From Oikopleura dioica (Eukaryota > Animalia > Chordata), in contig OU015566.1 of NCBI GenBank assembly GCA_907165135.1, positions 4,154,001 through 4,218,000 of the forward strand: a stretch of DNA of 64,000 nucleotides, given 5' to 3'. Under the pieces are notes generated by a model, which saw only the letters and a list, made by a program, of their open reading frames with translations, was not told the origin of the DNA and ran no database searches. A program made the translations under genes and the position numbers. Positions 28,380 to 52,983 of this stretch are shown one piece after another (within the stretch, counting starts at the first letter, position 1; the number at the start of each line of letters is the position of its first letter).

Positions 28380-28422
28380 TCAATCCCCCGCCCCACCTTA
28401 CCGTAAAATTTATTCTAGAGCG

Positions 28423-30300: not shown

Positions 30301-30607
30301 CAACCCGACGTACTAACATGCACCCATCACTCAAAACATTTTCCTGCCCGTTTTTCAATTGATACTTTTGTGCTTTTAAATTTTCGCTTTATTTGACTGT
30401 TTAAGATTTAGTTTCTGCTTCAAACTTTCCTTCAAATTTAGTTTTGCTTCGATTCCGTTTCCTTCAAATTTAGTTTTGCTCCTAGATTCCGCTTGTTTCA
30501 AATTCGTAAAACTAGCTTTAAATTGTTCAAACTTGTGCCACTCTTTCTCAAACACTCAATCTAGACCACTCAATTGTACTTGCGCTCTAATCAAAAATTT
30601 TAGAATT

Positions 30608-32736
30608 ATGCTCGTTTGGTTGATCTTGGCGGCGAGCTTGAGCTCACAAGAGATGACAAGCGAAGAGCACCGACGATACTGCAGCCGCTTCGTTAATCAC
30701 CAAGACCTGATTTGCCGGAAACACGCCCCAAAGCCCTCGTCAACTATTCCGCCAACGCTCGAGCCGCCGACGACCGAGCCTTCAACGCCCGAGCCGTCTC
30801 CACCACCACCACCAACGCTGGAGCCGTCTCCACCGCCAACTCCAGAGCCAAAGTCGTCCAAGGCCTCTTCTCCGTCCAAGCCGACTCCTCCAACTCCCGA
30901 GCCAACGTCAACGGTCAAGACAACATCCATGTCAACTTTGCCGGTCGAGACAACTTTTGCCGAGATCCCAACGAGCAGCAATCAAACGGACTCGCCAAGC
31001 CCTACGTCGCCGAGCTCTACGTCGACGAGCCCTGCGCCACCGAGCCCTACGTCGGGACGTACGTCATCTGTCGAAAAAGGAAAAATTAATTTTCTCACGT
31101 GAGTACGCTAGGTGCTTTTTCTCACCAGGTACCCTGAGCGCGCGGGGTACCCTGGCGCGCATATGGTGCATTTAATTTTATTTTTTCATTTATTTTATTT
31201 TCCTTTTTTGCACCCCGTGTGCGCCAGGGTACCCCATGCGCTCAAGGTACCTGGCGTCGCTAACCACCCCGTAGGCTCTTGTTAATTATCGGCCTCGCTT
31301 TCTCCTTTTTGGTGGTATTGATCGTTCTTGGAATGCATTGCCGGCTGGTGCGCTCACGGTACGAAACAATTCCCATGGAAGAAGTCGATGCCGAAGGTGA
31401 GGACCCCTATGAGCTCAGAAGAGACTTTGAATATTTTGCAGCTCTTGATGCAGAGAGGACAAACAGAGCCACCAACCGTCGAGCGGAAGAAGAGGAAATT
31501 GCTGCAACACGTGCTGCTGCAGAAAATGCCGCTGCTGCTGCCGCTGCTTCAAACCAGCCAGGAACCTCCGCGGCGACCTCGTCAGAAAGTCAGCCAACCA
31601 CGTCAACGACCTCGCCAGGAATCTCCTCGGCGACCTCGTCAACGACCTTGTCAGGAAATCCGCCGACAAATTCTCCACAGCTGTCCGAAGAGTCCTTTTC
31701 AATCGAGACCGAAATTTCAAATTTCGAGAGCTCGCGAACGCCGCCCGAAAATCGAAGCTCTGCGCTCCAAGCGGTAAGTTTTTACGAAAATTACAATTAT
31801 TGATTTTTAACTCTTATTTCAGAAAACGCCGCAACAAACAATGGAGCAATATCTCGCCAGCCTTCCGCCCGATGTTGTCGAGCACATTGACAAGTACGAG
31901 TCCCTCAAAGCCCGATTTGATGTCCAGTCGCCGATTACAAAGAAGCTGGCAAAGATTACGGTGCCGCTGAAAAAGCTGATGGATGCGCCGGCAAAATTTG
32001 GGATTTTGCGACGACAGCTCTTTGTGGAAACGCCGTTTTCAACGCCAGTCGCTTCGCCTGCTCCCTCGGCGACTCCGTCGGCGACTTCATCGCCAGAATT
32101 TGTCTCGGCACTTCAGTCGCCGATCGCATCGCCCGCTCGTCCAAATTTGTCGCTGCTCTCCGAGGAAGGAAACGACTACTGGAAGAACGAGTATTGGAGC
32201 AACTCGCCAGTCGCCAAGGTTTCACCGTTTAGCGTTGTCGAGCCAAAGCAGGAGCCGACGACGGAGCCAAAGCTGGAGACAAAGCTGGAGCCAAAGCTGG
32301 AGCCGCAGCCAAAGCCAAAGACGGAGCCAAAGACGGAGCCAGAGACGGAGCCAAAGCTGGAGCCAAAGACGGAGCCAGAGACGGAGCCAGAGACGGAGCC
32401 AACGACGGTGCCAAAGACGGAGCCAACGACGGAGCCAAAGCACACTTACGCCGCCACCGAATACGAATACGACTGGCGATTCGGCTGGCAATATGATGAT
32501 GGGCAATTTGTGCCGAAAAAAGAAGAACCCAAAGTCGAAGGCGGCGTCTTTTACCGCGAAATGGAAAAGCTTTTGGATGAATTCGACGGGCCCAACGATC
32601 AAGAATTCACCTTTATCGATGGGCTGGTTGCCTTTGGAAACTATATTTCGTAAGTTTTAGGCCTTTTGATTTTTACTCATTTTTGTCTAGAAAGCGAACT
32701 CAAGCTGCCACCACCGCCAACTCCTCCACCGCCTGA
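30608..32736 (+). CDS. Viral type I membrane mucin-like glycoprotein (~600 aa); 4 exons
   Basis: Signal peptide MLVWLILAASLSS, Cys pair, P/T/S stalk; intron 31099-31274 joins the TM LLLIIGLAFSFLVVLIVLGM; a further intron joins ORF 31841-32653 in frame. Confidence 0.7.
31125..31254. repeat. GC-rich fold-back (~46-bp arms, AT-rich loop) inside a viral intron
   Basis: CCAGGTACCCTGAGCGCGCGGGGTACCCTGGCGCGCATATGGTGCA pairs with TGCACCCCGTGTGCGCCAGGGTACCCCATGCGCTCAAGGTACCTGG. Confidence 0.8.
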
Positions 32737-32801
32737 TTGCTTCCAATTGTGCCTCTAAAACTTTAAATTTTTTCAAATTTTCAAGGTGCCATTTTTAGTT
32801 T

Positions 32802-35668
32802 ATGACATATGGATCGGAATATTGCCTTGACGCCGGAATCAATTCAACGTGGCCGCGAGCGACTCGTCCAGCGCCGACAACGACGACGAGAGCGACATCA
32901 ATCATGGGTTCAAGGCCACTCGGATGGTCTCAACGTCCCAATTACCCGGAGTCGGTCACGCCGTTCTTTGTTGCAAGCCGACCCAACTCCGCGTCCAGCA
33001 ACACCAGCGCCCCCACGTATGCGGGAGTCGTCACCACTGGCTCGGCCCTTCCCACCTTTGTCCCTCTTGCCACCAGTCGAGTCAGATCAAGAAGCGTCGG
33101 CCCCGCCGCCGCCGCCGCCGCAAACAACAACGACAGCGCCAACAACGGCGCTGCCAACAACGCAGCCTCCAACAACGACGACGCCAACGGCCACTCCAAC
33201 GGCCACGCCAACGCCAACTCCACCAGCCACGCCGCCGATACGGGACCTGGTCAATCAAACGTCCGCACTTCTGGATCCCCACCAAAGACCAGCTACTCCA
33301 TCAACGACGGCGGTGACAAAGCGAATGAGCGAGCTGAACCCGTTCGGTCGCAAGAAGAGCCACTTCGAACGCCCATTGTCAACTCCACCGCCAGTCCTTC
33401 GCTTACGGAGCCTAGCCCGGTCTCCTACGAGAGCGACAACGATTTCACCATTCTCGAGCGAGCCATCAACAGCGTCCTCGACTCCTCCAGCAACTCTGAA
33501 CAAACTGTCGTCGGAGCGGGCACTGACAACAGCCCGGAAACGAGCTCTCGAACGAGCTCTCGAACCAGCCCTGGAACCAGCCCTGGAACCAGCCCTGGAA
33601 CCGACAGCACCGCCAACGGCCACACCAACGGCAACGCCAACGGCAACGCCAACGGCAACGCCAACCTTTTCGACAATGCCGCCCCAATTTGCTCCCGAGT
33701 CGAATTTGTCGATCCACCCAATTCAACTGGTGGCGGTATTTGTGGCGATTTTCGCACTTTATCAGATGCTCAAGGCGGTTTTCACGCGAAACCAGCAATA
33801 AGGTAAGCCATCGCAGTCAACAGATTTTTCAAGTGTATTCTAGTGCATCAGGGCTCATTCCAAAAGAGCTCTTTTACGCGAAAACTGTCCCCCGCAACAC
33901 CTGGGTCGACTACTCGTCTTCGCTGGCGAGTCATGTGCGCGAAAACACGGGCATTTTTACTCGAATGCCGACTTCATTCAAGGGCGAATTTGGTTTCACC
34001 GTTCTCCCGCAAGTTTGGCCTCTTGTCGAAGCAGACGCACTCTTCAATCAACTGCTCGACGACATTCTCGTCTGCTGCCACCAGGAAAAGACGCTGACCT
34101 TGGACAATGTGCACCAGCGATCGTTGCTCTCCAGCCACTTGCTCGATTCGATTCCGCACTCGAGCCGCTTTGGCGCTTCCATTGCGTAAGTTTTTGCCGC
34201 TTTGCGTATACTAATCAGTGAATAGACTCGCGGAATTTTACTTGGCGGCGTGCGATTGCAAGTTCATTCCGAGGTCTTATTGGACGGGGCGAGAAGAGAA
34301 TGGTGATATGAGAGCCGTCAGCTACCTTGGGCGAAATATCTGCTCTTCAACAAACTCGCCACTCACCAACGACTCGACCGCAGCACCAGAGGACAGCGAA
34401 TACTTGGTCGGTATGTTCTAATTCTAGCAAAGCAAAAACTCACAAAACGGTTTAGGTCTCGACGTTACAACCGAGCTGACATCGATTATGCAAAGCATTT
34501 GCATGGCGAGTTACTCGGAAGTCAAGTCGCGGCAAGCGTTTTCACCGACTGTGCATGAAATCGACTGGACGACTCTTCATCGCAGCGACGCATTCGCCCA
34601 TCTGGTGACCGTTGCCAACATTGTCGACTACACGTACAAGGACCTGGCGCTTCCAATCCAAAATCGACTCGGCCGAAGATACCACGATTTGGAAACTCCG
34701 CGAGTCTTTGGAACATTTCTCCAGGTCGAACTGCCGAAGCTCGCCAAGGATCTTGCTCTGCTCAAGGGCTACTCCTTTCACCACAACTCGGAAAACGTCG
34801 CACTCTCGATGCTCGGAATTATTCGCCAATTTTTGGTGAAATTTGTCGAAAGCGAAGAGCAGCGACTCACCAAAGTGCTCTCCTTTACAGCGCTAGAAAA
34901 GGAGCTCGTCTTTCAGCCGTTGGAGAATCTGTCGCCCGAGCAGCAGCAATCCCGACGCGTTCTCCTCCGCACCCACAAGACCCTGCGCGGCACGTGCATC
35001 GCAAATCACAGGTGAGTGAAGTTAGAATTATGAGTGACTCATAAAGCTATCTTCATTCATTAGGCACACAATGTTGGTACTGCTGGATCGACTCGCCAAC
35101 TTTTACGTCGTCTTTGCGCTGCAAGAAGATCCGATGCTCCGCCTTAAATCTGTCCTCAAGTACGACCACGTCATCAACCAAACGCTCATCACAAAGAGGC
35201 GATCGCAATTTCGATCCCTTTTGCAAACGCTGGGCATGGATGCAGCCGACTTTCCACTCTACTGCGAGACAAAAAAGCTCGACGGCACAGGTAAGCTTTT
35301 TGCGCCCTTTGCGCTTTTTTGCACTTTTTGCACACTTTTTACCAAAAATTCTAGCGTTTGACATCAAGCCGCCAAGCCCGCTCAAGCGACGTTTTGATCC
35401 AAGCCGCCTCGTCGCTCCCAGCCGAAAACGAACCATCAGTTCCGTCTTTAGAAGCGTCGTCGGAGTTCCAACTCGTCGAGCCTCTGCACGTGCTTCATCC
35501 GTAGACACCGCCGGGGCGTACGCCGCCACCGCCGCCGTCAGTACTGGCGCCACAGCTGCAAGCAGCGCCACCGGGGCGTACGCCACCGCCGCCTCAAATA
35601 AAAACGACCCCTTTTCAGGTAAATCACCAAAAAGCACAATAGACAAATAATCAGATTTGTTTTTCTAA
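32802..35668 (+). CDS. Large viral orphan (~850 aa): disordered Asn/Ser-rich N-terminus, long helical globular region, basic tail; ~7 exons
   Basis: ORFs 32802, 33689, 34218, 34488, 35071 and 35114 join in frame through canonical GT-AG introns. Confidence 0.7.
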
Positions 35669-35899
35669 CGCCCTTCTCACGATGAAGTGTCTTCAACCAA
35701 GCCATAGCACCCAAGCAAGCCTGTCCTGCAGTTCAAGAATGCACGAACATTATATTAGAAAAGGATACACGTGTGAAACAAGTTCAATACGGCTAGGAAT
35801 GTAAGGAATGTGAGAGATATATGCGCGGCCCCTTTTTGGTCTTTTTTCTGTGGCACCATTTTTTACACCTTTAAACTGCTTTTACTGGAACATTTGTAC

Positions 35900-36267: not shown

Positions 36268-37236
36268 CTAGGAATGTATCCACGAGGGCGGAAACGTGTA
36301 AACGACAACTTGGTAAGCGAGCAGGCGATGAAGGCGCACATTCGAGTCTTGAAACACGTTGCGCCGCTGAAATGTGTTGATCAAGAGTTTGTTTTTGAAG
36401 GCGTCGGGTTCAAGTTCGTGCACAAGTTGATCAATGTCGGCGGGAGTTACAAGAAGTTCGGTGTCGTTTACTGAGCCCCAGGTGTTGGGGTATACAATCC
36501 TCACCTTGGGGCTCATTTCGTGCAAGTTTCCCTGTCGATCGCGCAATCTTCTAGAGCTTATGGTTGTGTAAAAGGCGTCGACTTGAACGCGCAGCAGCCC
36601 ATTGAGATTGTGCGCAATTTTTCTCACCGTTTCTTGAATATCCCACGTGTTGAGCAAAGTGATGCTGTACCGATTGCACAGTTCGTAATGGCGTTTCCAG
36701 CGATCCCCAGCAAAGGACATTTTGTGATGGTCCCAATGATCTCCTAAAATTCTCTGTGAGCCATAATGTTGAAAATTTATACTAGCGTTTCAATTTTGCA
36801 AAGTTTAAAATTTGAATTTCTAGTTTTGGTGAAACCCATGTAAAACAGCTCGTCCGAACTTACGTATAAAGTAAATTGGCGCATATTGTAGCGGAGAATC
36901 TAGCGCATACAGGCACTCCTCTTCAATCGGCTCAAAATATTCTTCGGGGTCGGGATAAGCGCTTTCCATGTTGTTGTTGGGAATGAGCTCGTTGAGAAAC
37001 TTGATGTCCGCCTTGGTTCCCTCGCCAAGATTGTCGCTTTCGCTTTGCCAGTTGATAATGTTTCTCGAGGCGGGATAATACCAATCGAGCTCTTCTGGCG
37101 ACAACTCGTAATCATTTTTCTCGTCTGCATCTACTGGATTGCGTGGAGGCCTCAACGGAACAGAGCGCCGATACCGACTTCTTTGGCGCCGAATGTACTC
37201 GACCGTTTCACTTAGACGCTCGCGAAAACCTCTCAT
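36268..37236 (-). CDS. 282-aa protein, candidate stand-alone terminal protein (TP); 2 exons
   Basis: Exons 37236-36864 and 36743-36268 join in frame; the C-terminal half resembles, by eye, the TP region normally fused to Polinton pPolB. Confidence 0.55.
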
Positions 37237-37328
37237 TCTGCAAATAGATTTTTATGGCTACTTGTATTTTAGTTTTTATTTACGGCTACACAGTTGAAAA
37301 ACGAATTGAAAAGAGCTTGAAAAGACAG

Positions 37329-40300
37329 CTAAATTAGAGATCCATTTGCACGCCTGAGGGGTCGAGTAGTGACCTTGTCCGGCATAATCAGTCGTTTTGT
37401 CAGTATTGGGTTAATGACCTTGCGCGTTGTTGTCACCGTCTCCATTCTGTCGCGCTTTCGATTCCACAAAAACTGGGCCACATCTCGCGTCACTCGCTGG
37501 TAATAATCGATTCCAAATACAGCACACAGAAACTCGTAAAACCTATAAATTAGTCGGTCTGTTGTGTGCGCGGCTACTTACGAAAGCTGAATCTTTGTCT
37601 TGCATCCCTTGGTCGACTTTTTCGTAATTTTGGGCTCCCGTACGGGCTGCGCAAAAGTGTGCAAAATCTCCAGCGTTCGATGCTCATTTCTTGGGTCGAC
37701 AATTTGCTTCTCCAACTCGCAGGGCTCTTTTGGGCACAATGCATAACACTTGGGCGAAAGTGTTAGAAACCAGCCCGATTGGATCGATGCCTCTTCTTTC
37801 AGCAGCCCCGGCTCCTTTTGACTTTCCACCGATTCTCCAGCAAACCATTGTGGCTCGACAGCTTCCTCCCACATTTTCACCAAGTGTGGCTTGACACATT
37901 CTTTTAGCGTCGCTCTTGTTCGAGCATAGGCCAGCGAGTCTGTGTCGCAATAGCAAAATTTTACAGTTCCAGGAATCATGAAATCCTTGATAATGTCCTT
38001 GAACTGCAATAAATGCAGCTTCGAGTTTTGATAAATGGCGACTTGGATATGAAGTGCCAAATTCTCAATAACGGTCGACTTGCGCATGACAACTTCATGA
38101 AGCGGGTCCATTGCCACATCCTCGACGCGAATCGGTTTATAAGCTTTGAACATTGAGCTTTCAAAGCACTCGCGGAGACGATCAGCACCGACAATTTTTG
38201 TATTTACAAAGCGATGATTTGCTTGCGCAAATTTTCCAACAAACGAGTTCAAAAAGAGCTTGTACATGTTTGAGCCGGCATCGTCGCCCTTTTTCTCGCA
38301 CTCGATTCGCTCCTTGACCATTTTGTTGACAAAGTTGGCAAAGGGCGCTCCTCGATAGTAGTTGACAAAGTACTTGATTTCATACTCGTAGCCTTGGTCA
38401 ATCAAGTATGCCAGCATATCGCTTGTGCACAAGTAGTTTTCCTTGTTGTAGCAAAAGATGTTGTCTTCCTTGGGAAACATTCGCTTCTTGACATCTGGGG
38501 GAATGATGCGGTCAATGTGTCCTTGGCAGTCTCCAGCTTCGAGTTTTACTCGCGCAAAAATGGGCGGAATTTCGGGATGGCGATCATAAACTTCTTGCGT
38601 CGCCTTCAAATCAACCATAATAAAGCCAAAGAATTGCGTCTTGTTGCCCTCGATGCGACGAGCAAAGGTTTCCCTAACGTCATTTTCGCCAACGACTTCG
38701 TCAAACAAAAACGGATAATCGGCACTGTAGAGCATCTCGGGACGTTTTCTCAAAATGATCGACTTTTCCTTGACCCATTCACAGTGGTACTTGATGCGCA
38801 ACACGTGGTGAAAATTTTGTGGGCCTTGGAGGCCTTGAACATGTTGCCCGTCTAGAGTAGGCTTTCCCCAGTCTTGCATCTTGTCTTGCTCGCGCAATGT
38901 GTCGACAATCGAATGGATGCGCTCAATTTCTAGTTGGACAATTTCGGGCGTCGAAAGAACCTTGTTGACAAATTTGCCATTGACAGAAACTCGACGTGTT
39001 CTAGCGGATTTATAGAGCACTTTTTTGCAGGAAAGAAGCGGACACGGATGAAAATGGCAGCCATTGTACTCGACAAGCAGCTTTTGAACAATGTGCTCGC
39101 CATCGCTGTTGGTGAAAATCTTTGAAAGTGTAGCAAAGCCGTCAATCGAATATCGCCCAATCTTTTTTTCGACAAAATTGTAGGCATGTTTGATGCGATC
39201 GCCCATAAAGTTTTTGTTCAAGTACTCGAGGTAGCGGATCGACTCGAGTGAGGGATTTTCCTTTTTGCGATAAAGTGGAGTCGCTCTAAAATTGTTGAAA
39301 TTGCTCGTCTGTCGCTTGTACAGCATTCCGGCGCCAATTGGAAGCGGTTGACGAGCCATGTGTCCATACAAAGCATTGAAATCGTAAATTGTAAAGTCGC
39401 AAAAGGCTTCTCCATTTGTAGATTGCCACAGCTCTTTGGGAAGATCGTCACTGGGCCCATTGAGATTAACTGCTCGGTGAACAGACTGACAGATGCCGCC
39501 TGTAAGATTTTCGCGCAAATCATTGTAAAAGCTTTCTGCCTCTTTGGGCGGCGAAATAATTGGCGGCAATTGTTCATCATAGTGCATAAATGCTGCAGTT
39601 TGGGCAAGCTGTGCAATTGAGAGTCCTCCATGTGCGCCAAGTCCAAAAACTTCGAGACACTTTTTCGAGTAGGCATCAATCGCCGCGGTCAGCAATCGCA
39701 CGTCGTTTAAATTGTAGTTGACAAGGAATTGCACCATGTGCATGTTTTTGACGCTTTTCGCAATCTCATCCCAGAGGCCAAGACTTTCATTGTAGGCTTT
39801 GGGCGAAATGTGAAACATTTTTTTCACCGCTTCATTTTCAGCATCGCACTCGTAGCAGTCGCCCTTCCATTCAAAATGCGAATAAATGTACTGGATCATT
39901 GTGGGAGGACAATCTGGTGGCAAATCTTTGAGCGCAGGAGAATCGTACAGTCGCTCGAGACCAAGGTACTCGTCGAGTTTTTCGAAAAAGTTGAGCTGCG
40001 TCCACTCGCCCGATTCAAACTTGCTCTTGATAATTGAATTCATTTCAAGCGCGTGATCTTTGCACGGAATGTAGAGCGAAGACGAAAACGCTGGATAGGG
40101 CGGCAATTGAGTTGTCTGATACATGGTTTCCATGTCTGTAAACAAGTCGTAGGGGAAAATGCCTTTGGAAAAGGCGGCAGGATCCAAGTTGAACGATCGA
40201 GCAAATTTTTCAAGAGAAATCGGCCCCACGTGGTTCATAAAATCCCGAAAACTTATTCCCGCACACTCGAGCATCATGTAGCCCCCGTCACGTTTGATTA

Positions 40301-42476
40301 TATTGAGCTGATTTGATTTCCTTCCAACAAAATCATACAGTACCGACGTGAGCAGCGGCATCAATATTCGCAAGTCGTAGCTTTCTCCATTCCAGGCGTA
40401 GCACTTGAGTTTGAAAAATTCTTTGAGGTAGTTGAGCTTTTTGCGAATGACGCCTTGCTCCTCGGGCGTAAATTGATCCTTGGCATCTTTGCTCAGCTGG
40501 TAAGAGTACATGTCGATCCCTTGCTGAAGACATGGAGGTAATTTTTCGGCCGCGCGCTGTCTCAGCTTGGACAAATACTTGACGAACTTGGCCGCCATAA
40601 TTATGCCACTTTCGTAGTTGAGATCTTTTCTCAAAAACCATTCCTTTTCTCCATCGCTAGTCATGCAAGCAATTGAGACTACATTGTGGAATTTGTGATT
40701 AGAGAGAAGCGGCTCCTTTTTTGGGGTTTTTGCCCTTTTTGACTTTTTTGGGCGTCGCAAATGCGGCGGCAGTGCTTGCATTGATCCATTGATTGAAACA
40801 CAATTGTTGTCGACTTGCATTTCCTCGCCGCCGCCATTGTCCTCGCCGTCGTCATCGTCGCCATTGCCCTCGCTCTTGCCGTAGTCGTTGGTGTTTTCGT
40901 AGCCATAGATTGACGCAATTCGGCCAAGCGAGTCGCTCGACATGACCGATTCTATGTCGTAGGTTATGTAAAAAGTTTGGACAAATTGCTCGTGTGGCAA
41001 ATAACCATCTTTGACAATTTCTTTTATAAAGTCGGTCACGTGGCGGCCGCGCACCGTTTGCGTGATAATTCGCCTCTGCTCTAGAGTGCACTTTTTGATG
41101 TGATCTTTCATTCGAGCGGGGCGATCGTTTGTATACGGACAGTTTTGGGTGGGGCAGCGCGGCATATCTTTCACTTCGGAACTTTGAAGCACTCGCACGC
41201 GGGTATTTTCGTCAAATACATTGGGCACAAGTCCACCCAAATTTCGTATCGGCTCGTCGTCGTCGTTTTCAATATCGGTGGCATCGCTGTCGTACTCGGG
41301 AAAAAGGTCAACGTCGTCGTCACCGTCAGAGTCGCACCGCTCGTCGACGTCGGTAAGGTCGCCATAGTCGGCACAGTTGTAGTCGTCTTCGTCTTGCATG
41401 GCAGCGGCACCAGCGGCGGCACCGCCAGTTCCAGCAGTGGCGATATAAGTCCCAGCAAAACCAGCCAATTCTCTCAAACTGTCAGGATACTTTTCGAGTC
41501 GACTTTTTCGCCAGTTGGGGTGAGCAGCAAGGCCAGGGTTTCTCCAGGGCTCGGCTTTAAGGCGCTTGTAGCTCACGTTGGCAAATTTTTCAAATTGGTC
41601 CAAAAAAGTGTCACTTGTGTGCCCAGCGACGAGCAGATGCAGCTGCTTGTGACTTTTGAGCGGCATGGCGCCATAATAACAACGACGATCGCGCACATTA
41701 TCGTTGACAACATTGCCAGTATAAAGCATAATGTTGACTCCAAAGCGAGATCTTATCCGGCCAAGAACACCATCGGAAATTGAAAACCGCTCATTTTCCG
41801 CCAACGTCAGCTCCTTTTTCACGTGCTCGATTTTCAAGTCCTGCTCTTCCCGGCTCAACTTTGGCCATTTACAGTTGACAATGGCTCTCCAAACAGAAAT
41901 CCAATTTTTGTCAAAATCTTCTGCCACGCGGCGAGTTGGAATAAAATGAAACGTGCCCAAGCGATGGAAAAATGGCCTACTACTCTGCAAAACAACAAGC
42001 GGCCGATCGCGGTCAAGTTTTTCTAGCTCGCCAAGCACGTTTCGAATGCAACTAGGTCCAGACGTTCTGTAGGGCCTATATGAAATTCCCAGGGGCGCAT
42101 AACGTCCCCCATACAAAATGTAGAGATCAATTCCGAGTCGCTCTTCAATACGAGGAAAATCGCTGCGTTTTGGAGTGCCAAACTCGGCAACCAAATCATC
42201 AACATTGACATCCACAATTTTATCCCACAAGGCGCGCGAAATTGTTTTTGGCTGCTTACCTCCAGACAGACGGTGCCAATTTATTCCCAGCTTGACTGCG
42301 TGGTAAAAGTTGGTCTTGCAGCCTCCATCATCATCATCGGAATCAGAGGAATCATCGGATGTTCTTGAACGAAATCTCTCGCCTTGACGATTCGAATACA
42401 AAAAGCGATTACGGCGCTTGCGAGCACCTTCAGATTCATGCTTTTCACGATTTATTAAAAATCTTGAAACTTTCAT
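37329..42476 (-). CDS. pPolB: Protein-primed family B DNA polymerase (~1702 aa), 2 exons, with a VSR-like nuclease insertion
   Basis: Exo I YDIES, Exo II NGESYD, Exo III YNLND, motif A YDFNALY, motif B KLFLNSFVGK, motif C YCDTDS, KCY, KSTKG. The 39-nt intron 37581-37543 adds the typical C-terminus (...KVINPILTKRLIMPDKVTTRPL). Confidence 0.97.
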
Positions 42477-42543
42477 TTTTCAATAATTGAATAAAAAGAC
42501 TTTTTCAATAAAACAACATTTATTAGAATATACACATGCATAA

Positions 42544-44402
42544 TTAACCCCTTCGTCTTCGTTTTGGAGCAGCCTTGGGAGGCGGTGGGATAGTTTCGGC
42601 CCTTCGCTTTGTGCCCCTTGCAGTAGTTTTCATGACCCGAGTACCGCCCACCACAGATGCCTCTGAATAATAATAATAATTAGTGAGTTCCCAAGTGAGT
42701 AAATACCTCGAGCTTTGGCGTCCAAAAACAGCTCTCGCACTGGCAGCCTCATAATCATTGCATCCCATTGTTGCACAAGCGTATCGGCAAATTTGATTTT
42801 TGCAGTAACGAGCGCAGTTTGACCTTCACCATCATTGTCGAAAATGAGCGGCACCAACCAATTTTGCCCTTTAAAGACAAAATAGTCGAGTCCGCTAGCT
42901 GTAGCTGCATTCTCCCATCGTCCATTGTGTTTCATAAAGTTGATGTAGTGCTGAGTTGCAGTTGACCAAGGAGATCGATATGCAGGCTGACCATCAATGT
43001 AAATGGTAAATTCTTGAATTTTGAAAAATGGATGTTCCATTGTAGTCTTTGAGATGCACTTTTCAAATGTCATTTGACTAGCTTGTGAATAGGGCATTCC
43101 TGTGAAAATTATCATTTTGGGAACAGGTCCTGCGCTCAACTCAATGTCGTACTCGCTCATTCCAGTTCCAAGTGTCTTTCGGGTGAATTTCGGATAGTAA
43201 AATGGAATAACACATTCACCATCCCGTCCAGTTGAAATTGGTCTTTCGGCATCAGTTTTGGATCGCAAAAGACTGATTCCATCAAAAATTTCGAGGCTTG
43301 AGTCGCTCCTTTGGATCCAGCTTGTTTTCCCTGAAAAAGTAGATCATCTTTTCGTCTTCGGCAAAGTTTTCTTGTCCTTCAATTTCTTCTGTCTTGACCA
43401 TGTCTTCGATGATGTCGTGGGGGCGCCACCATTTTAGATCCGTTCCATTGGCAGCCGTGGTTTTGATGTCGGTTGCCTTGATGTTGACTTCGTCGTCGCT
43501 GTACGGGTCCAATTCAGAGTTGAACTTTTCAATTACCCGTTTAATTTTTTTAGCCTTTAATTTTTCAGCGCAATCGCATTGGCCCGCATTGTTGTGCTGC
43601 CCAATATTTTTCAAAAGTTTGAATTTCTTCGGGAAAGGGCATTCTGACTTGATCTAGCTGGGACATTTTGGCTCGGCACTTTTGAAAGTTGGAATGGCGC
43701 ATTAAAGCATAACACTGCTCATTCATTGTAAGTTCAATTTGTACTCGGGTGCCGGCTGGGAGCACTCGACCCTGTCTGCACAGGCCGTGCATAATGGGAG
43801 CCCGAACTTCGTACTCGTGAAAGAGTCTCTCATACGGGATCCAGATCTCGTATGCCGTCTTCTTTGACAAATTTTTGCTTTATCTCAGCCGGCTCCCATA
43901 GCTCGGTGGCAAACTGTTGCCGATTCTCGACCAAATTTAGCTTTTCCCCTCGAAATTAGTGTGATGCACTTTGAAGCGCTCAAGTTCGGGCCCTCTGCAT
44001 CAAAAGTGTCAAACCTTCCCTGGGAGAAAAGCTCGACTTCTTGAGCCACTGTTGATTTGTTGAGTTTGGCCTCACAGTGGCTATAGTGGCCATACTCGGC
44101 TGGGTCAAAAGACGAAAAGAGCCGAGTATCTGCAATGATAAAGTCCATTTTTTAATGCCCTTGGACAAAATATCATTATCGGGCACATAATTTGAGGGCA
44201 TTTTAAAATTGCAGCCAAACATGCACTGCGACAATTTAAGACTGTACTTGTCATCGGGCACTTCAAAACGGGTAATTTCCGGACAGTCATTTTTGCCGAG
44301 TCGCGGCACTACTTTGTAGCCCTTGTACGGATCCAGAGTTTCTTTGAGTTCGCGCTTTCTTCCGCGAAAGAACATGAGATTTCCATAATTTTCGTTTGCC
44401 AT
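42544..44402 (-). CDS. Major capsid protein (double jelly-roll, Polinton PY-like), ~544 aa if five candidate introns are spliced
   Basis: Segments PDNDILS, FSQGRFDT, APIMHGLCRQGRVLPAGTRVQIELT, YPKFTRK, GPVPKMIIF, IYIDGQP and KIKFADTL follow the Polinton MCP motif order; basic tail PKRRRR. Confidence 0.8.
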
Positions 44403-44430
44403 TCTAAACGCACTGCATTAGACAACTGAG

Positions 44431-44532
44431 TTAGACAAGCTTTTTCAAATATTCCAATATACGAGCACAATCAATAAATCGGAAAACAACGAGGACAACA
44501 TAGGTGACGAGAATTGCCACGAGCATAATCAT
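44431..44532 (-). CDS. 33-aa hydrophobic single-TM peptide directly upstream of MCP
   Basis: MIMLVAILVTYVVLVVFRFIDCARILEYLKKLV; the frame is open upstream to a TTTTATTCAG acceptor at ~44703. Confidence 0.4.
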   Translation of the reverse strand: MIMLVAILVTYVVLVVFRFIDCARILEYLKKLV

Positions 44533-44793
44533 CTTCGTCTTCGTCGCTTGGCGCTGGCTCGTTTCTTGGGCCGAGACACTATTCCTCGTTTCGAGAGAGA
44601 CAGTACTTTGCCTCGGGTCGTCACAAGGAATGCAATCGGCGATTGCTTCTTCTTGCTCTTTCGTCGGCGCGCCATCGAGTGCGATTATTCCCCCAATCTT
44701 GACTGAATAAAATTTTAACCTTTACAAGTCACCAAGCGACCAAATTTACGACAGTTGTAACGACAGTTTTTACGACAATTGTAACGACAGTAA

Positions 44794-47038
44794 TTAAATT
44801 TCAGTCTTGTCTTTAACAAAATTAATTTCGGGTTCGTAGTAACGGCGATGCAAAGTTTGGCCCTGGGGACCTCGCAAAGAGTAAGTTGGTTCAAAAGTTC
44901 CAAAGTGAATATCAAAAATTTCGTACAATTCTTTGGTCCACTTTGCGCGCGCCCCTTTCCTAAAGCGGGATGATTTAGCTGCAGGTAAAGTGTCGAGAGG
45001 GATTCGAACAAGATCTCCAATAAAATATTTGGAACTTTTGCCAGTGCGTTCTTCGTACTTGCGCTTGAGTTCCAAATAATCAAAAAGCTCGCGCGCATTT
45101 GCACGATTAACGCTACTGGGAGCACGATTAATTGCGCTATGCACAGAATTATTGTAGGCAACATTGACATCTTGAAGAATGTGTATCCAGCGGCGAATTC
45201 CGTTGTGCGATGCGAAATAGAGCTCCAAACGATCTTCCAGCGTGCGACTTAAGTTATCCGTTTGAATTTAACAAATTAAAATTGCATGCAAAAGCTATCA
45301 ATTATTCAACGCACTTGAATCGCTCAGCAAGAGCAGCTTTTACGCCGGTTAGCTTTACGGGCGTCATGTTCCAGTCGTCGAGCAGAAGCGCAACTTCCCC
45401 CTTGAATTCGTTTCCTTGATCCGTCATAAACATGGTGTGCCCAGGCAAATCTAGCGTGGAAAATATGTCGCCCAAAAGCTGAGCGCATTCGGCAGATGAT
45501 TTGGTTTTCATGGGGCGCACAAAAGATTGCCGAGACAATCCGTCTACAACTACCAAAATGTATGGATAGCCAGAGTTGACGGTGGCATCGTTTTTGTACG
45601 CTTCGATTGTATCTGCATAAAGACACGTGTAGAGTCCAGTTGCAATGACGGGATTTCGCCTAAACTTTTTGACAAGCGGCTTGTGGCGAGAAAGCACTTC
45701 ATTGCGCCGCTTCATTTTTGCCACATCGAGCCGCGAATATGCAGTTGGCTCGTTGAAATTGTAGAATAAATGTTGACTGTTGTTGGGTTGTTGTTGTTGT
45801 TGTTGTTGTTCTTGTTGTTGATTTGGTTGTTGCTGGCGTTGTTCCCGCTGGCGTTGTTCCCGCTGCTGCTGCTCATTTCCAAAAATTGGAAAGGTCCTTG
45901 ATTGGGGCTCCTTCGGGCTCGGGGTCGCTTGATTCGCGCGATTCGACTGAGTCGGAGTCGACTTCTTCGTCGTCGTCGCCGATGGTGGCGGTGGTGTGAC
46001 CAGGTTCAACTTTGACTGCGGTGACCTTAGGTTGAGCATCTTTGCTATTCTTCTGGATCTCTCCAAATTGCTTTCGGAATTGGGCAGACCGCTTTGCAAA
46101 ACTGTCCTTGGCATCATGTCCGGCAAATCCAACGGGTTCCCGAATTGATCTACTGTCCGTTGGCTCGAGCTCGGGCTGCTGGTGGGGATTTCCATCGGCT
46201 CCGAAAAAGTAGTCTTTTGGGTACCACTGCTTGGTTGGAGCAAATCGAGGAAAGTCGTCTTGCCGCTCTTCTCGCCCCCCACGCATTGGGTCAAAAAAGA
46301 AAGGCCGCGGCTCTGGGTGAGCAAAGCCGGAGTAAGAATCGGTTTGACGACTGTAGGGCCAGTTGGATCTCCTAGCCCTGCTCTGTTGAGCTCCTCGGTC
46401 ATCGTATCTTGCCATTTTGCCGCCGCCTGGACTGGGTTCAAATCGGACCCGCTTGGATCTGGGTTCAAATTTTTGTTCAAATTTTTGATCAAATTTTTGT
46501 TCGAATCTGGGGTCAAATCTGGGGTCAAATCTGGGGTCAAATCTTGGGTCGAATCGGGGGTCAAATCGGGGGTCGAATCTTGGGTCAAATAGGGGTTCAT
46601 AATAGTCGGGTTCGTAATGGCGAGGTTCGTATTCGCGAGGCTCGTATCTTGGCTCGTATCTGGAATCGTGCCTTGGCTCGGGATGGGAACCATGCTTTGG
46701 TACATGCCGTGGCTCGTGCCTTGGTTCATGCCTTGGCTCGTGCCTTGGCTCATGCCTTGGCTCATGCCTTGGCTCATGCCTTGGCTCATATTCGCCTCTG
46801 GGCGGTCCAGCGGAAGTGGAGTTTTCCGCGGCCGGCCTCGGGGCCTCTTCGTTGTCTGCAAATCTTTTTGGTGAGTCTTCTGATTCGACTTCGTATTCTT
46901 GTTGCGTCGGCTCGATGTCAATGTTTCTAGGCCTGTAGGAGTACGATTTTCCCATTGGAATGGCTCGGTTTGAAAATCTTGCAACCATTTGGGCGGTTCG
47001 CGTCTCCTCTTCGGTGTAGTCCGGGTAGGGTTCGCCAT
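44794..47038 (-). CDS. Retroviral-type DDE integrase (~725 aa) with a long disordered N-terminal extension; 2 exons
   Basis: YADT, YILVVVDGLSR, TDQGNEF; the 67-nt intron 45314-45248 restores AERFNRTL; C-terminal YFIGDLVRI...KGARAKWTKELY...YYEPEI. Confidence 0.95.
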
Positions 47039-47153
47039 TTGCGCGAGGGCCGCGGGCCCTTACCCTACCTGTGTCGGGATTGTACTCGATGTCGTCAAAC
47101 AGATGTCCAAATTCAGTTGGAGTCAGACTAAAGTATACACTCGCTGTTTTCAT
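45873..47153 (-). CDS. 426-aa ORF overlapping the integrase N-terminus in another frame (possible overprinted gene)
   Basis: ATG-initiated; open through both repetitive and non-repetitive sequence. Confidence 0.35.
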   Translation of the reverse strand: MKTASVYFSLTPTEFGHLFDDIEYNPDTGRVRARGPRANGEPYPDYTEEETRTAQMVARFSNRAIPMGKSYSYRPRNIDIEPTQQEYEVESEDSPKRFADNEEAPRPAAENSTSAGPPRGEYEPRHEPRHEPRHEPRHEPRHEPRHEPRHVPKHGSHPEPRHDSRYEPRYEPREYEPRHYEPDYYEPLFDPRFDPRFDPRFDPRFDPRFDPRFDPRFEQKFDQKFEQKFEPRSKRVRFEPSPGGGKMARYDDRGAQQSRARRSNWPYSRQTDSYSGFAHPEPRPFFFDPMRGGREERQDDFPRFAPTKQWYPKDYFFGADGNPHQQPELEPTDSRSIREPVGFAGHDAKDSFAKRSAQFRKQFGEIQKNSKDAQPKVTAVKVEPGHTTATIGDDDEEVDSDSVESRESSDPEPEGAPIKDLSNFWK

Positions 47154-47311
47154 TCACTCCCATGCGCCGCGCTCATTATGCCTCTCTCTAGTAATCAATC
47201 TAGGATTAATATTTAATTCTCCCTTAAATCAGTTTTTTCATAATTTTGAGTGCGCCACCTACAAAAATCGGACCCAATATAAACTGCGGTTTCATCTACA
47301 AAAGTACAAAA

Positions 47312-48085
47312 ATGTCTTCAATCATGGAACAACTCCGCCGGGAGCAAGAGTCTCCCGAAAAAGAGAATTCACTTCCATCGCCCTCTGATAATCGGCCTGA
47401 GCCGTCAGATTTTCGCGTACCTGAGCCGCCTCAGAGAAAACGAAAAAGGAGCAGCTCCCCATCCCCAACTCGAATCAGCAAAAAGGCCCTCTTGGACTTT
47501 TTATTCGGCGCCGAAGATCAACCCTCAACTTCGAGAGCAATCGAGACCACTCCTGAAGACAACAACGACAAATCTCAACCCAAGTCGCCAAAGAAGCGCA
47601 AGCACATTCCTCCACGACCAGCATCTAGCTCCGACGACGAAGACGACGGTGACGACGAAGACGACTGCACCCCCGAGCCTTCCGTCAAGAAAGCCAAAGC
47701 CGCCCCCTACACGCCGACCTTTATAAAGATCCAAACCGCGTTTCCAATCTTGGAGAAGGAGGAGGAATCTCTCTCGGCGCCATTTTTGGCGCTCATCGAC
47801 GGACACAAGCTCTCCAATCCTCCCAAGGGCACCTACTGGATCAACTTGCTCATTGAGCGAAGCGTTCGCAAAGACACGAGCCCCCGATTTGATTTTGAAA
47901 AGCTGTTGAAGCGAGGATCGCGCATTCAGTGCGTTATTAATCTCCACAGTTTTAATCCCAAGAAGCGAGACGACGTCGAGTTCAAAAAGTACTTGCCCAC
48001 AGTTTTGGATCAAGGAGGAAAAGTCGTCGTCTTTCTGCGAGCACGAGTCGAGCCCAAAAAAGCCCGAATATCAACGGGCCTTTGA
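47312..48085 (+). CDS. Viral orphan (~257 aa): NLS-like and acidic disordered N-terminus, small C-terminal domain
   Basis: AAAATG start context; QRKRKRS, PKKRK, DDEDD; divergent from the integrase. Confidence 0.65.
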   Translation: MSSIMEQLRREQESPEKENSLPSPSDNRPEPSDFRVPEPPQRKRKRSSSPSPTRISKKALLDFLFGAEDQPSTSRAIETTPEDNNDKSQPKSPKKRKHIPPRPASSSDDEDDGDDEDDCTPEPSVKKAKAAPYTPTFIKIQTAFPILEKEEESLSAPFLALIDGHKLSNPPKGTYWINLLIERSVRKDTSPRFDFEKLLKRGSRIQCVINLHSFNPKKRDDVEFKKYLPTVLDQGGKVVVFLRARVEPKKARISTGL

Positions 48086-48136
48086 GCCTAAAGGCTATTT
48101 CAAATCCAAGTTTCTCTTGCCACTCAAGTCGACAGA

Positions 48137-48872
48137 ATGATCGGCTCAAGTTTTCTTGGTAAGTACTTTGGGGACACGCGGCTCAAACATCCATTTGCGG
48201 CGATTATTAGCGGAAGTACGGGCACAGGCAAGACCCACGTAGCTAAACAGCTCATTGAAAAAGAGGGCATAAGGGGAAGAATTTCGACCATTTATTACTT
48301 TATGCCCCGCCTGGAGCCTTTGAACATTAAACCCCCAGCCCATCAGCGATTATTTTTGATGGAAGGTCTCCCCACTAGAAAATGGGTTGATGACACGTTT
48401 AAAGAGACCCAGCGCGACACTCTGATTATTTTCGACGATCAGTGGGCAGAGTGCGTTGAAAACCGGGCAATCGAATATCTCTTTGTTTATGGGAGACGCC
48501 ATCTGGGGATTAGTTTAATTGGCATCACCCAAAATTTTTATCAAAAGTCGAAAAGCTCCACCCTCTATCGGTTTGAATTTTCTAGAATTGCCTCAACTAA
48601 TTGTTTATTTTAGCAATTGCATGACATGCTTTGTCTTGCTGCCGAATCATGTAGACTCGTCAATCAACGCCACCATCGCCACCAAGCTCGGCTACAGCGC
48701 CTGCTACAAAGCCGCCCGAAAGCTCTTCAAAGAACGTCGATGCCGGTACCAGTACGTTATAATTAGAAAAGACGTAGAAGATCCGACGACGCCGACCTTT
48801 TATACAAACGCCTTTTCTGACATTCCCGAGTTGGGGCCAAACCCCGTCTTCTTTGAAGAAAACGACGAGTAA
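48137..48872 (+). CDS. A32/FtsK-HerA-like packaging ATPase (230 aa); 2 exons
   Basis: Walker A GSTGTGKT, Walker B LIIFDD, GRRHLGISLIGITQ; the 43-nt intron 48571-48613 restores LYRNC. Confidence 0.93.
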
Positions 48873-49116
48873 CTATACGATTCGGCATTCATTTGTAACA
48901 CTCTTTTTCTACACTCAACCGCTTTATCTACTTTCAACCGCAAAACAACAAAAAAGAATAAATGTTTTTATACAAAATTAGAAATTGTATTTGGTTTTTT
49001 GCAGAAATACAGTAGCGAGTTTGGCAAAGTGACAATGACAGTAAACAATGCAGGCCAGCAAGCCAACAAAGTTTAAAATCGTATCAGCAGAGCAAAACTC
49101 GGCACACGGAGCGGGT

Positions 49117-49829
49117 CTAAAAATTGCGACCGCAAATATCAAGGACGCGGCCATTGGCCGATCGGATCAAAATTTTGACCCGCTCCGCGCGCAGATCGTT
49201 GACAAGGCGATGCTCTTGGGTCTCTTCGGCGTCGAGGATGTCGCACATTTCCTTGGCGAAGGCGGCGCGCTCGAGGACGGTGTTGGCCTGGGTGAGGCGG
49301 AGGAATCGAAGGTTGTCTAAATAAAAGTTAGTTGAGCATTTTTTCGAGCTACTCTTACCTTCGAAAATAGAAGCGCCGTCGATGCAGTAGCTCAGCTGGT
49401 CAGCGTCCACGTCGACAAAGTTGACGCCATTTGGCGCGCGAGTGGGATACTTGGGCGCGGGAGGAGCCAACGGAACTCGCTGAGGCTGGGCCTCTTGGTA
49501 GGTGCGCTGGTTTTCCTGCTGTCGCTGCTGCTGTCGCTGTGGCTGGGGCTGCTGCTCGCCCTTTTTCTTGCCGCCAAAGAAGGACATCTTTCCTCGGCCA
49601 ACTTCGGGAGCTTCAGCGGGCTGGGAGAGCATTCTCGAGGCAGCTGCCAACTTGGCGCTTGCTCGTGCCAAAGATTTGGCGAGGTTGGTTCGCTTGGCCG
49701 CCGTTGTCTAAACAAATTTGTTCTAGAATTGTTTTTTCAACACTGCAGCAAGCTACAGTCGAAGCAAGCTACTAGCCACAGTCGCAGCAAGCTTCACTTG
49801 CGAAAATTTCGACTCACCTGCTTGGTCAT
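49117..49829 (-). CDS. Viral orphan (~190 aa), basic/Gln-rich N-terminus; 3 exons
   Basis: MTKQ|GTGAGT...TTTAG joins ORF 49117-49671, which contains a further in-frame 42-nt GTAAGA-TTTAG intron. Confidence 0.6.
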
Positions 49830-49983
49830 TTCAAAAAAGTAAAAATTGATCCTTGCTGTAGGGTTGCAAAAACCAAACTGAGCATTTTTTTGCATTTTTC
49901 ACACTCGCCAGGGGCAGTTCTAGAGAAATTTATTCAATTTTTTTATTGAAAACAACAATAACAAACAGGGTGCAGAGTGGGTT

Positions 49984-51345
49984 CTAGAGATTTTTAATTT
50001 TCTTCTTGGACGACGACGGGGCGCAGAGTTTCTTCGACTTGGCGACCGTTGAGCAGTGGATCGGCGGCTTGTCCTTGCGGCGGCAAAATTGGAACTGGCA
50101 TTCTATTTGCGCCAAGAATGAATCTCGGTCGTCCAAAAGATTGGACCTGAAAATTTTCAAAGGGCACATCGTTTGTGCGCGTACGAACCCGGTCAATAAA
50201 GATTCGATGGGGATTAATGTCGGCGCGGATGATTCGAGGAAAGACGGGATTGTAGAAGCTGTTGCGAAAATCTTGGACGAGCGAGGCGTTTCCATTGTTG
50301 CCAGTGACAAAGAGCACACCGTTCCAGGGAATTTTTTCGCGGCAACATTTGACGCGAAAAGGTGAAACCGCGTAGTCGAATTCAACATCTCCACCGCCAC
50401 CAGTAGTTGCAACATAGAGCTCACGTCTGCGCCGGCGCTCGGCATCGAGGCGACCAATGTAATCCTCGAGGCGATCTGCGGTGAAAGCACAACAGCCGAT
50501 TTTTTGCTGGCGAAGTTTCACTGTTTTTACGCTTTCGGTGAACCTTCGCAAATCGTAATCGGTCATTTTTTCTAGCTCGTACTGCTCAATCGGAAGAAAT
50601 TGGCCAAGGATGCGGCGGACTTGATCGTTGGCGGTCTCTTGGTCAAAAGTTTTGTCCTTGTAAAAGCGGTCACGCAGCGTAGTTTCAGCAAACAACACCA
50701 GAGTCGAGTTGAAAAGCTTGTTCGAATAGCCGCTGAATCGCTTTCGCATGTCGTGAAAATAGGTTTCGTAGCGCGGGTACTGAACGCGATTGTAGGGCAT
50801 TGAAAATTTTTGATTTTTCAGCGAGTCGGCGTCGCGAGAGTATTCAATTTCGTAGGAGCGGCAAGTGTACTCGTTGTTGCTATCAGTCGTGTGCATCATT
50901 GTGGGGCGATTCGAGTTGAGCAGCGGGCCACTTTTTCGAAGTCCTCCTTGAGCAATGTCGACAACGGGAATCAGACATCTTTGGCCCTTGGTCGAGTAGG
51001 TTTCCGGATCAACTAGAATTTATTAGAAGGTGAGAGAACATTTCAACATACCGGTGACACGATGAACTACAATTTTGAGCCCAATTTTTTCGACGCCATT
51101 TTCCCTGTATCTCTGAGGAATAAATTCAAAACTTTCGTCGCTGGGAACTCCGCAAACTCGAGTCGGGCGAACTTCGATTGATCGGAATTCGTCTTCATAG
51201 TTGACGCCGATCAACGGTACTTGGTTCAGGCTAATCTTTGAGGCAATTTCCACCTTTTTCATGGGCATTTTTAAATGTGACAATTGAGTCCAAAATTCCA
51301 CCCAGTCCAGCTCCACCAGTGCTCCTCCACTCGATATCCATATGC
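49984..51345 (-). CDS. Candidate minor capsid protein (penton), more than 420 aa, at least 3 exons; 5' end unresolved
   Basis: Introns 51051-51013 and 50543-50507 join three ORFs in frame; beta-rich ends (VELDWVEF; FHLFASNV...IECQFQFCRRK) resemble Polinton pentons. Confidence 0.6.
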
Positions 51346-52574: not shown

Positions 52575-52913
52575 GATTCTAGAGCCTAGCGGCCACTTTT
52601 ATTGACCACTCGTTTTTATTGACCACTTTATTTTTTATCGAACGATTTATTTTATTGACCACTTAATTGACCACTCGAGTAAAATGTCTGGCTAGAGCCT
52701 GGCTGCAAATCGCCCAAAACTGCACCGAGTCCAAACGGCCTGCCGTACGGCCTGCCCACCCTAGTCAAAGTCTGAATATTTTCCAAGTATTTGCCCCGGG
52801 GTCCCCATATGTCGAGCGCGCAAAATCCACCCTTTTTTTCACTTTTTTCATTTTGGACTCGGCGCGGCGAAAGGGCGGCCTGCAGCTAAGCCCTAGCCAG
52901 ACATTATACTACT
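52575..52913 (-). repeat. Right terminal inverted repeat (~339 bp)
   Basis: Ends in ...CATTATACTACT; reverse complement of 17501-17843. Confidence 0.95.
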
Positions 52914-52983
52914 CCGGCCAATCAGCAGCCGAGTAGCCGCCCACGCAAAATTTGTCGAATATTTTTTTTCGGTTCCAGACACC
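52914..52983. mobile_element. Right TSD (CCGGCC, 52914-52919) and right half of the split MITE
   Basis: Matches the reverse complement of the first ~70 bp of the intact MITE (from 14754). Confidence 0.9.

Follow-up and report, generated by a model that had tools for sequence, protein, structure and literature searches.

A Polinton/Maverick element of Oikopleura dioica with one likely host-spliced intron in each of four core genes

In the available part of their report, Barreat and Katzourakis (2021, PMC8097293) describe intact vertebrate Mavericks whose genes have no introns. In several other respects those elements resemble the one that we describe here from a 64-kb window of Oikopleura dioica DNA (the whole stretch analyzed). 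Both have terminal inverted repeats (TIRs) with (AGT)2//(ACT)2 ends, a 6-bp target site duplication (TSD), a protein-primed DNA polymerase B (pPolB), a retroviral-type integrase, a packaging ATPase, a double jelly-roll (DJR) capsid protein and flanking accessory regions. However, gene order differs, and here each of the four core genes has one intron, three of them common to relatives. The Oikopleura element, at 35 kb, also exceeds the 13-25 kb given for Polintons (PMC10748475). Nematode Mavericks with cargo, as presented in the accessible portion of Widen et al. (bioRxiv 10.1101/2022.07.12.499685), have a GC-rich region by the left TIR with intron-containing accessory genes, like the arm at 21-36 kb here; this arm differs from the nematode cargo in its 14-kb length and in having genes that match no family in the frames scanned. 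That text calls the nematode core genes intronless. The canonical intron-free type of vertebrates and nematodes, with core genes that are single uninterrupted ORFs, does not describe this locus.

Spliceosomal introns do occur, as here, within full-length integrated Polinton-like elements, the dinoflagellate eupolintoviruses (Gozashti and Corbett-Detig 2025, PMC12166617). In the part of that paper available, the introns are introner insertions that recur and are for the most part young, with about a quarter in coding regions, whereas those of our element are single, unrepeated in the window, apparently old and fixed at a single codon throughout the lineage. Host-type GT-AG introns are also found in an integrated nucleocytovirus, the giant endogenous punuivirus; the available text reports them in 61 of 506 genes, enriched in latency rather than virion genes (bioRxiv 10.64898/2026.10.09.758095), unlike here, where capsid and packaging genes carry them. 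A literature search, mostly of open-access main texts, turned up no earlier account of Oikopleura Mavericks with intron-split core genes. Adenoviruses, which are related nuclear double-stranded DNA viruses with a pPolB and a DJR capsid, likewise rely on the host spliceosome, but they use a long leader and alternative splicing of large transcription units rather than single 40-nt introns in each core ORF. To our knowledge, adenoviruses have no integrase.

The ends of the element (Table 1) are those of a Polinton/Maverick: the TIRs have the expected AGT- or AG-repeat ends, the AGT motif being that of the available account of PMC8097293, and CCGGCC stands on both sides, within the usual TSD range of 5-8 bp (usually 6 bp). 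This hexamer occurs once in an empty, paralogous copy of the host repeat (14770-14902). The named gene models exist as two near-identical copies on two scaffolds, and together with the 97% TIRs and perfect TSD this suggests that the element was copied recently. Near-identical TIRs and an intact TSD likewise point to a young insertion.

Table 1. Features of the element and its borders, in positions of the window
Feature	Position	Strand	Remarks
Polinton/Maverick element	17501-52913		35 kb; identical in its genes to named O. dioica models
Left TSD, CCGGCC, 6 bp	17495..17500	.	hexamer single in paralogous empty host repeat
Left TIR	17501..17751	+	251 nt; AGTAGT start; 97% complementary to right arm
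Array of ~37 short cores (TCATTT)	19330..21230	+	spacing ~45-50 nt; spacers mostly unrelated
Left arm, accessory genes	21400..35700	+	bulk of the candidate introns (predicted, roughly 12-25)
Gene of unknown family downstream of pPolB	36268..37236	-	one intron, 36863-36744 (120 nt), predicted from signals and frame
pPolB gene	37329..42476	-	1633-codon open stretch and 70-codon last exon; PF03175
Predicted pPolB intron, 39 nt, phase 2	37543..37581	-	GTAAGT donor, in-frame stop inside, AG end; from signals
DJR major capsid (MCP) gene	42544..44402	-	31-41% to L001 MCP pieces; fold of relative P0013
MCP tail intron, 44 nt, phase 1, GT-AG	42663..42706	-	common to relatives
Retroviral-type integrase frame, long N-terminal extension	44794..47038	-	rve E 3.3e-6; 42-55% to relatives
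Integrase intron, 67 nt, phase 2, GT-AG	45248..45314	-	common to 3/3 relatives covering both ends
426-codon ORF overlapping integrase extension, +1 frame	45873..47153	-	overlap kept in 8/8 elements examined
Uninterrupted ORF upstream of ATPase	47312..48085	+	open frame here in relatives too
A32/IVa2-type packaging ATPase gene	48137..48872	+	below cut-off (Pox_A32 E 2e-4); no difference from P0002 over its model
ATPase intron, 43 nt, phase 2, GT-AG	48571..48613	+	common to 10/10 relatives covering site
Small gene of unknown family	49117..49829	-	two introns, 49817-49708 and 49358-49317, predicted from signals
Gene earlier called penton	49994..51268	-	confident part of model helical
Candidate in-frame 42-nt intron	50147..50188	-	used by database gene model
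Alleged second 'penton' intron, coding sequence	50507..50543	-	begins GT, ends AG
Intron, 39 nt, phase 1, GT-AG	51013..51051	-	position common to two relatives at protein level
Right TIR	52663..52913	-	ACTACT at end
Right TSD, CCGGCC, 6 bp	52914..52919	.

The gene content agrees with this assignment. pPolB matches PF03175 above cut-off (E 5.5e-17, 62 bits) as well as a PHROG polymerase, and is 36-41% identical to that of the metagenomic locus L001. The integrase, which is conserved in relatives, reaches 27.7 bits with rve, below the cut-off of 32.6. Pfam scores of the ATPase also lie below cut-offs (Pox_A32 E 2e-4, Adeno_IVa2 E 1e-3), and its relatives P0003 and P0005 carry PF04665. The DJR capsid is recognized through a model of the relative P0013 (pLDDT 53), the window's own gene being homologous but frameshifted: the four Foldseek matches with E<=1e-3 and the top eight VIA matches are all DJR capsids, the best at Z 8.4 with an rmsd of 6.3 over 186 aligned residues. 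No adenovirus-type maturation protease was matched by Pfam in 93 frames scanned, a selection of the element's frames that a split or divergent gene could escape. The TCATTT-core array near the left end gave no Rfam match.

The preliminary description had reported a Polinton in Oikopleura with a short host-style GT-AG intron in the polymerase, integrase, ATPase and major capsid genes, and our analysis bears this out. All six of the intervals that it named as introns begin with GT and end with AG. Five hold up, that of pPolB by its splice signals; the sixth, 50543-50507, does not, because relatives align straight through it.

For the ATPase we took 11 metagenomic loci, of which L011 stops short of the intron site. 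In all 10 others the intron lies at the identical codon and phase, although the first exons are as little as 40% identical. Read in the matching phase, the second exon has an open frame of 82-85 codons in nine of these 10 rows (L010 is cut by its contig end), and it differs at codon positions 1/2/3 by 0.42/0.33/0.63. The integrase gives the same picture on a smaller sample: three loci span both intron ends, L005 and L006 among them being nearly one element. Their phase-matched second exon is open for 145-150 codons in every row, with differences of 0.46/0.34/0.64, and the donor is also present in L002. In the capsid gene, similarity is lost at the tail-intron column in all six MCP relatives, and L001 has an 85-nt intron at that site.

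Across loci the ATPase and integrase introns are 38-113 nt long, 60-88% A+T and bounded by GT-AG. Like host introns, those of the element have the U2-type traits of being short, A+T-rich and GT-AG bounded, and in the ATPase, integrase and MCP tail a conserved exon downstream can be reached only once they are removed; pPolB shows the signals. Unspliced, the ATPase and integrase frames stop within 1-14 codons, leaving truncated proteins, and the MCP would be without its basic tail. Eight RNA runs under the same species label matched host genes only partly (one exon at ~90% or less) and matched the element only in short chance stretches. No RNA read or contig crosses a junction of the element, and with so poor a match to the host genes this carries no weight either way.

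How old are these introns? The ATPase, integrase and MCP introns keep codon and phase between elements whose proteins are 40-63% identical, while the intron interiors, window against relatives, are identical only at the level of shuffled sequence. The relatives, with first exons 40-84% identical, are scattered across the whole tree. Of the 11 metagenomic loci, two can be linked to a host, both through one named O. dioica protein of a different assembly, to which L002 is 99% and L001 up to 79% identical. Hence at least L002 is an Oikopleura element. IMG/VR scans with the ATPase, the MCP alignment and pPolB returned no relative. The four identified core genes of this Polinton/Maverick thus have one likely host-spliced GT-AG stretch each. 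Because position and phase are common to such distant proteins and the introns themselves are no more alike than shuffled sequence, we think it probable that the ATPase, integrase and capsid introns were gained once, in the ancestor of an Oikopleura-associated lineage; the intron-free ancestral state is taken here from papers and not from an aligned outgroup. The introns would then be ancient and fixed in the lineage rather than recent colonists of this copy. Since the interruptions of the core genes bear host-type signals and three of them recur at one site in distant relatives, the lineage likely depends on the host splicing machinery.

Perhaps recent host intron gain, for example by introners, colonized the integrated copy after long residence in the genome, as first proposed? 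The shared codon and phase just described refute this for the ATPase, integrase and MCP introns: the comparison among relatives that had been suggested dates them as old. A young insertion, as judged from TIRs and TSD, also argues against it, as does the core density of four introns in 10 kb (0.4/kb), far below that of a host with a median exon of 152 bp (PMC8008620). Introners do populate integrated eupolintoviruses in dinoflagellates, mostly after integration according to the available portion of PMC12166617, and intron turnover in O. dioica is high (PMC11067885). The suggested match to introners was nevertheless not seen: neither the 27 introns of the element nor the rest of the 64-kb window revealed a family, mean identity being 0.46 against 0.44 for shuffles and junction repeats 0-3 nt. 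What speaks for colonization is the intron-richer left arm, which has no homologs to date its candidate introns, and one intron-like stretch near the pPolB start of L001 that is absent from the window, so some gain or loss continues. Aligner-placed "introns" within the open pPolB frame of L001 are insertions and were set aside. As an account of the element, colonization seems to us very improbable.

We also considered that decay or assembly errors in a dead element were mistaken for introns. This holds for about six intron-free frame changes within 0.9 kb of the MCP, and in a sense for 50543-50507, which is ordinary coding sequence. Yet in independently assembled, divergent elements a single codon is interrupted by A+T-rich GT-AG inserts of varied lengths, each followed by a conserved exon that is intact, and we give this explanation the least credence of all. 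Single introns may instead have been kept for function, gating or boosting viral core expression through regulated splicing, mRNA export or the escape of transcripts from the silencing of intron-less RNA. Each core gene has exactly one, always in its 3' half (at relative positions 0.59, 0.77, 0.91 and 0.95), and they are kept in every relative seen despite host turnover. The truncation of unspliced products fits as well. Four positions are too few for a bias, however, and an element lacking an RNA intermediate would be expected to keep even functionless introns. Punuivirus introns accompany a distinct expression program, but in the available text they mark latency genes, not virion genes (bioRxiv 10.64898/2026.10.09.758095). 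Functional retention is possible but unlikely. Somewhat more doubtful still is its extension to an active larvacean polintovirus lineage turned splicing-gated, in which a conserved 3' intron in polymerase, integrase, ATPase and capsid would be a host-controlled switch for replication and particle genes, alongside the repeat-spacer array near the left end and a 1-kb stretch upstream of the integrase that is dual-coding and conserved.

We favor a single ancestral gain followed by passive retention. Host RNA polymerase II would transcribe the element in the nucleus, and its transcripts would be spliced like those of host genes. Polintons copy DNA to DNA with their own polymerase, so daughter elements would all inherit the introns, with no reverse-transcription step to strip them. 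Once spliced, an intron would be nearly harmless, while its imprecise loss would break the gene; no regulatory role need be assumed for the core introns. With old, fixed introns in its capsid and packaging genes, an entire virus-like lineage would have to be transcribed in the nucleus and would depend on the spliceosome. Such introns, being rare markers, would also help to date intron gain and the spread of the element in a host whose intron turnover is extreme. Large Maverick surveys called genes with prokaryote-style finders on an intron-free assumption (PMC10120064). In every relative seen, finders of this kind end the ATPase, the capsid gene and one other gene prematurely at the intron; such lineages are therefore mis-annotated or counted as fossils.

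The virus had also been credited with intact genes. As assembled, the MCP of this copy changes frame 6-7 times, from ~44150 to ~43250, against each of six relatives, and the copy may therefore not be functional. None of the changes requires an intron of host size. Allowing GC, GA or GG donors and 18-nt introns left the score unchanged in five of the six relatives, and five or more shifts remained in all six. Nor is the zone rich in single-base runs (8.9 per kb, against 10.2 in pPolB).

The gene labeled as a penton gained no support for that name: P0012, used in a single jelly-roll penton search, yielded no Pfam, PHROG or Atlas match and no meaningful fold match. Its model is of low confidence (pLDDT 48, helical core), and these negative results do not exclude the label either. 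At the intron 51051-51013, both relatives of that exon end at the same column. The alleged one at 50543-50507 sits in an open 341-codon frame; all three relatives of that part align through it unspliced, five invariant residues fall inside it, and the database gene model does not use it. For the last exon of pPolB there was no Pfam or PHROG match and no relative in a GTDB scan, and P0022 had no match in a PDB sequence search.

The preliminary description put the candidate introns of the element at roughly 35-40. Between 36268 and 51345 we count about nine plausible introns. A frame-rescue scan there gave little or no excess over shuffles, and because it is noisy, ab initio scanning was not used to count core introns. 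The left-arm genes, whose scanned frames match neither Pfam nor PHROG, may be intron-richer, as in nematode Maverick cargo regions. In the left arm of our element the excess is clear: a strict rule gave 13 candidates (two overlapping) on the plus strand versus one antisense, and a score of at least 14 gave nine versus a shuffle mean of 0.3; at a score of at least 8 with frame rescue, 19 were found versus 3.9 in shuffles, but with nine antisense. The 27 candidate introns of the element have a median length of 43 nt; that of host introns is 48-51 nt (PMC8008620).

The element carrying these genes is a Polinton/Maverick. It is 35.4 kb long and bounded by inverted repeats, begins with AGTAGT and ends with ACTACT, and has CCGGCC on either side. 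It sits in a short, MITE-like palindromic host repeat; an empty paralog of that repeat, 2.5 kb away, has the hexamer only once, which confirms the target site duplication. Vertebrate Mavericks share these termini and the duplication, according to the accessible part of PMC8097293. Pfam returned a type-B polymerase match and, with scores below the curated cut-offs, matches to an rve integrase and an A32/IVa2 ATPase. The capsid gene (MCP) is homologous to an uninterrupted ORF of relatives, and a structure model of one relative's capsid best matched double jelly-roll capsids, with modest scores. Neither a penton nor a protease was identified in the element. Two genes match named gene models of Oikopleura dioica exactly: the ATPase model P0002, which appears on two scaffolds, and P0012, the model of the gene starting at 51268, whose sister model P0019 differs from it by one residue. 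Two database models are faulty: P0002 begins past the Walker A region despite an ATG at 48137, and P0022 merges the overlapping ORF, integrase and capsid in one protein.

Positions of features in the window
Feature	Position	Strand	Details
Host sulfotransferase genes (PF17784)	14078-16750	+	tandem pair, left of insertion
Host palindromic repeat	14740-14902, 17415-17500, 52914-52983		insertion site and empty copy
Empty paralog of repeat	14770-14902
Terminal inverted repeats	17501-17751 and 52663-52913		251 nt, 97% complementary
Repeat-spacer array	19330-21230	+	about 37 TCATTT cores at 45-50 nt spacing
Left arm	21400-35700	+	14 kb; genes GC-rich, low-complexity, intron-bearing
Predicted pPolB intron	37581-37543
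pPolB inserted segment	about 38900-39250	-	common to L001
MCP tail intron	42706-42663
MCP frame changes	about 44150-43250	-	about six
Integrase intron	45314-45248
Dual-coding region	45873-47153	-	300-460-codon ORF over integrase N-terminal extension, +1 frame, overlap 0.5-1.2 kb (ranges over eight elements)
ATPase intron	48571-48613
Database-model intron, 51268 gene	50188-50147		predicted, in frame
Proposed intron, 51268 gene	50543-50507
Intron, 51268 gene	51051-51013
Interstitial telomere-type tract	53906-54022		(TAACCC)n, 1 kb from element's right end

The preliminary description had named six introns, and all six intervals start with GT and end with AG. A metagenome scan with the ATPase alignment yielded 11 loci. 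Gene order is unchanged over whatever length each locus spans, and their main matches are 31-55% identical at the protein level. At the ATPase intron, all ten covering loci have an insert at the same codon and in phase 2, rich in A+T, 38-113 nt long and with GT-AG ends; the insert of locus L010 is one residue off by alignment, yet lies at equal distance to the downstream motif. Loci L005 and L006 are almost the same element. Unspliced, the ATPase frame meets a stop after 1-14 codons. Read in the matching phase, the second exon runs without a stop for 82-85 codons where complete, and its third positions are the most variable. The integrase intron behaves likewise in 3/3 loci, and its donor is also present in L002. 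At the MCP tail, L001 has an 85-nt phase-1 intron, and in six of six MCP relatives, whose genes were predicted as unspliced, the similarity ends at that column. The intron at 51051 also held: the first exons of two relatives (88% and 37% identical) stop at its donor. For pPolB, the canonical donor and an in-frame stop agree with the proposed intron, no relative sequence reaches the site, and the last exon resembles what we take to be the pPolB C-terminal motif. The interval at 50543 is coding: its frame is open, and 3/3 relatives align across it, some residues within and past it being invariant. The database model of this gene uses a different, predicted intron.

Are these introns as recent as the insertion? 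First exons of the ATPase share 40-84% identity, and every branch with DNA sequence carries the intron. Intron interiors are alike only in the close pairs L001/L002 and L005/L006; between window and relatives their likeness is at shuffle level. A named O. dioica protein of another assembly shares 99% identity with L002. One estimate, in the available portion of PMC11067885, places the split of O. dioica lineages about 25 million years ago; element divergence need not track host divergence. The insertion itself looks young, judging from its inverted repeats, target site duplication and near-identical second copy. Hence, the introns are far older than the window copy. An A+T-rich GT-AG intron-like stretch near the pPolB start of L001 (4460-4417, -) is missing in the window, so intron turnover is not zero.

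Each of the four core genes identified has a single intron, always in the 3' half, giving 0.4/kb over 10 kb; the host median exon is about 152 bp (PMC8008620). Upstream of the ATPase lies an ORF without interruption. With a splice-site profile built from 12 introns of relatives, a clear excess appeared on the left arm + strand only: 9 candidates at score 14 against 0.3 in shuffles, 13 against 1 antisense under a strict rule, and 19 against 3.9 at score 8 with frame rescue, where 9 antisense candidates mark the noise level. The left arm holds roughly 12-25 predicted introns and the interval 36268-51345 about 9; the earlier count of 35-40 introns is thus high, and most of it falls in accessory genes. 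In the scanned frames, the left-arm accessory genes matched no family. Some candidates in this arm have GC donors (e.g., near 28571 and 29488). No two of 27 element introns were alike, and nothing of them came back in the window except short A+T-rich words.

The genes had also been described as intact. As assembled, however, the window MCP shifts frame 6-7 times relative to each of six relatives. Against these uninterrupted relatives, the changes cross no stop and need no host-size intron. The adjoining pPolB is open for 1633 codons, without such changes in its exon, and six shifts would cluster in MCP alone by random chance at about 4e-5. Either a local assembly error or a lost capsid function of this copy could explain the shifts.

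In vertebrates, intact Mavericks lack introns (PMC8097293), and nematode Mavericks have an intronless core with intron-bearing cargo (bioRxiv 10.1101/2022.07.12.499685); a protist survey presumed none (PMC10120064). Introns do occur in other integrated DNA viruses, as dinoflagellate introners (PMC12166617) and in a punuivirus (bioRxiv 10.64898/2026.10.09.758095). Spliceosomal introns in Polinton core genes do not appear in the accessible portions of PMC10748475, PMC8502044, PMC11296320, PMC12220804, PMC3443670, bioRxiv 10.64898/2026.07.28.741278 or 10.1101/867069. We found no published account of intron-split Maverick core genes in Oikopleura, though subscription papers and supplements could contain one. 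With introns that are old and fixed in the lineage in its core genes, this Maverick is a real and apparently undescribed variant of a known element.

Intron positions, signals, conservation and open second exons are direct observations. They are consistent with element genes that would be transcribed in the nucleus, introns that the host major spliceosome would remove, and a probable single gain in an ancestor. Eight RNA runs under the O. dioica label differed from this genome, with host genes matching in part, and none covered the element. Polintons replicate DNA-to-DNA, so there is no cDNA step to purge introns. A regulatory role is possible, because the unspliced ATPase and integrase would be truncated and the capsid would lack its basic tail; it is superfluous for explaining retention.

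Other features accompany these genes. Spacers of the array (about 35 nt) mostly show no relation to each other (identity 0.47; shuffled, 0.46), and TCATTTT occurs 29 times on + against once on -. The array had no Rfam match and its spacers match nothing within the window; a protein-binding array, a small-RNA array and a decayed minisatellite are all possible readings. The segment inserted in pPolB resembles a Vsr-type nuclease in its pattern. The dual-coding overlap occurs in 8/8 elements (the window, L001, L002, L003, L005, L006, L008 and L010), with conserved blocks in both frames. Vsr insertions mark marine pPolB2 Polintons, according to the part of PMC10748475 available.
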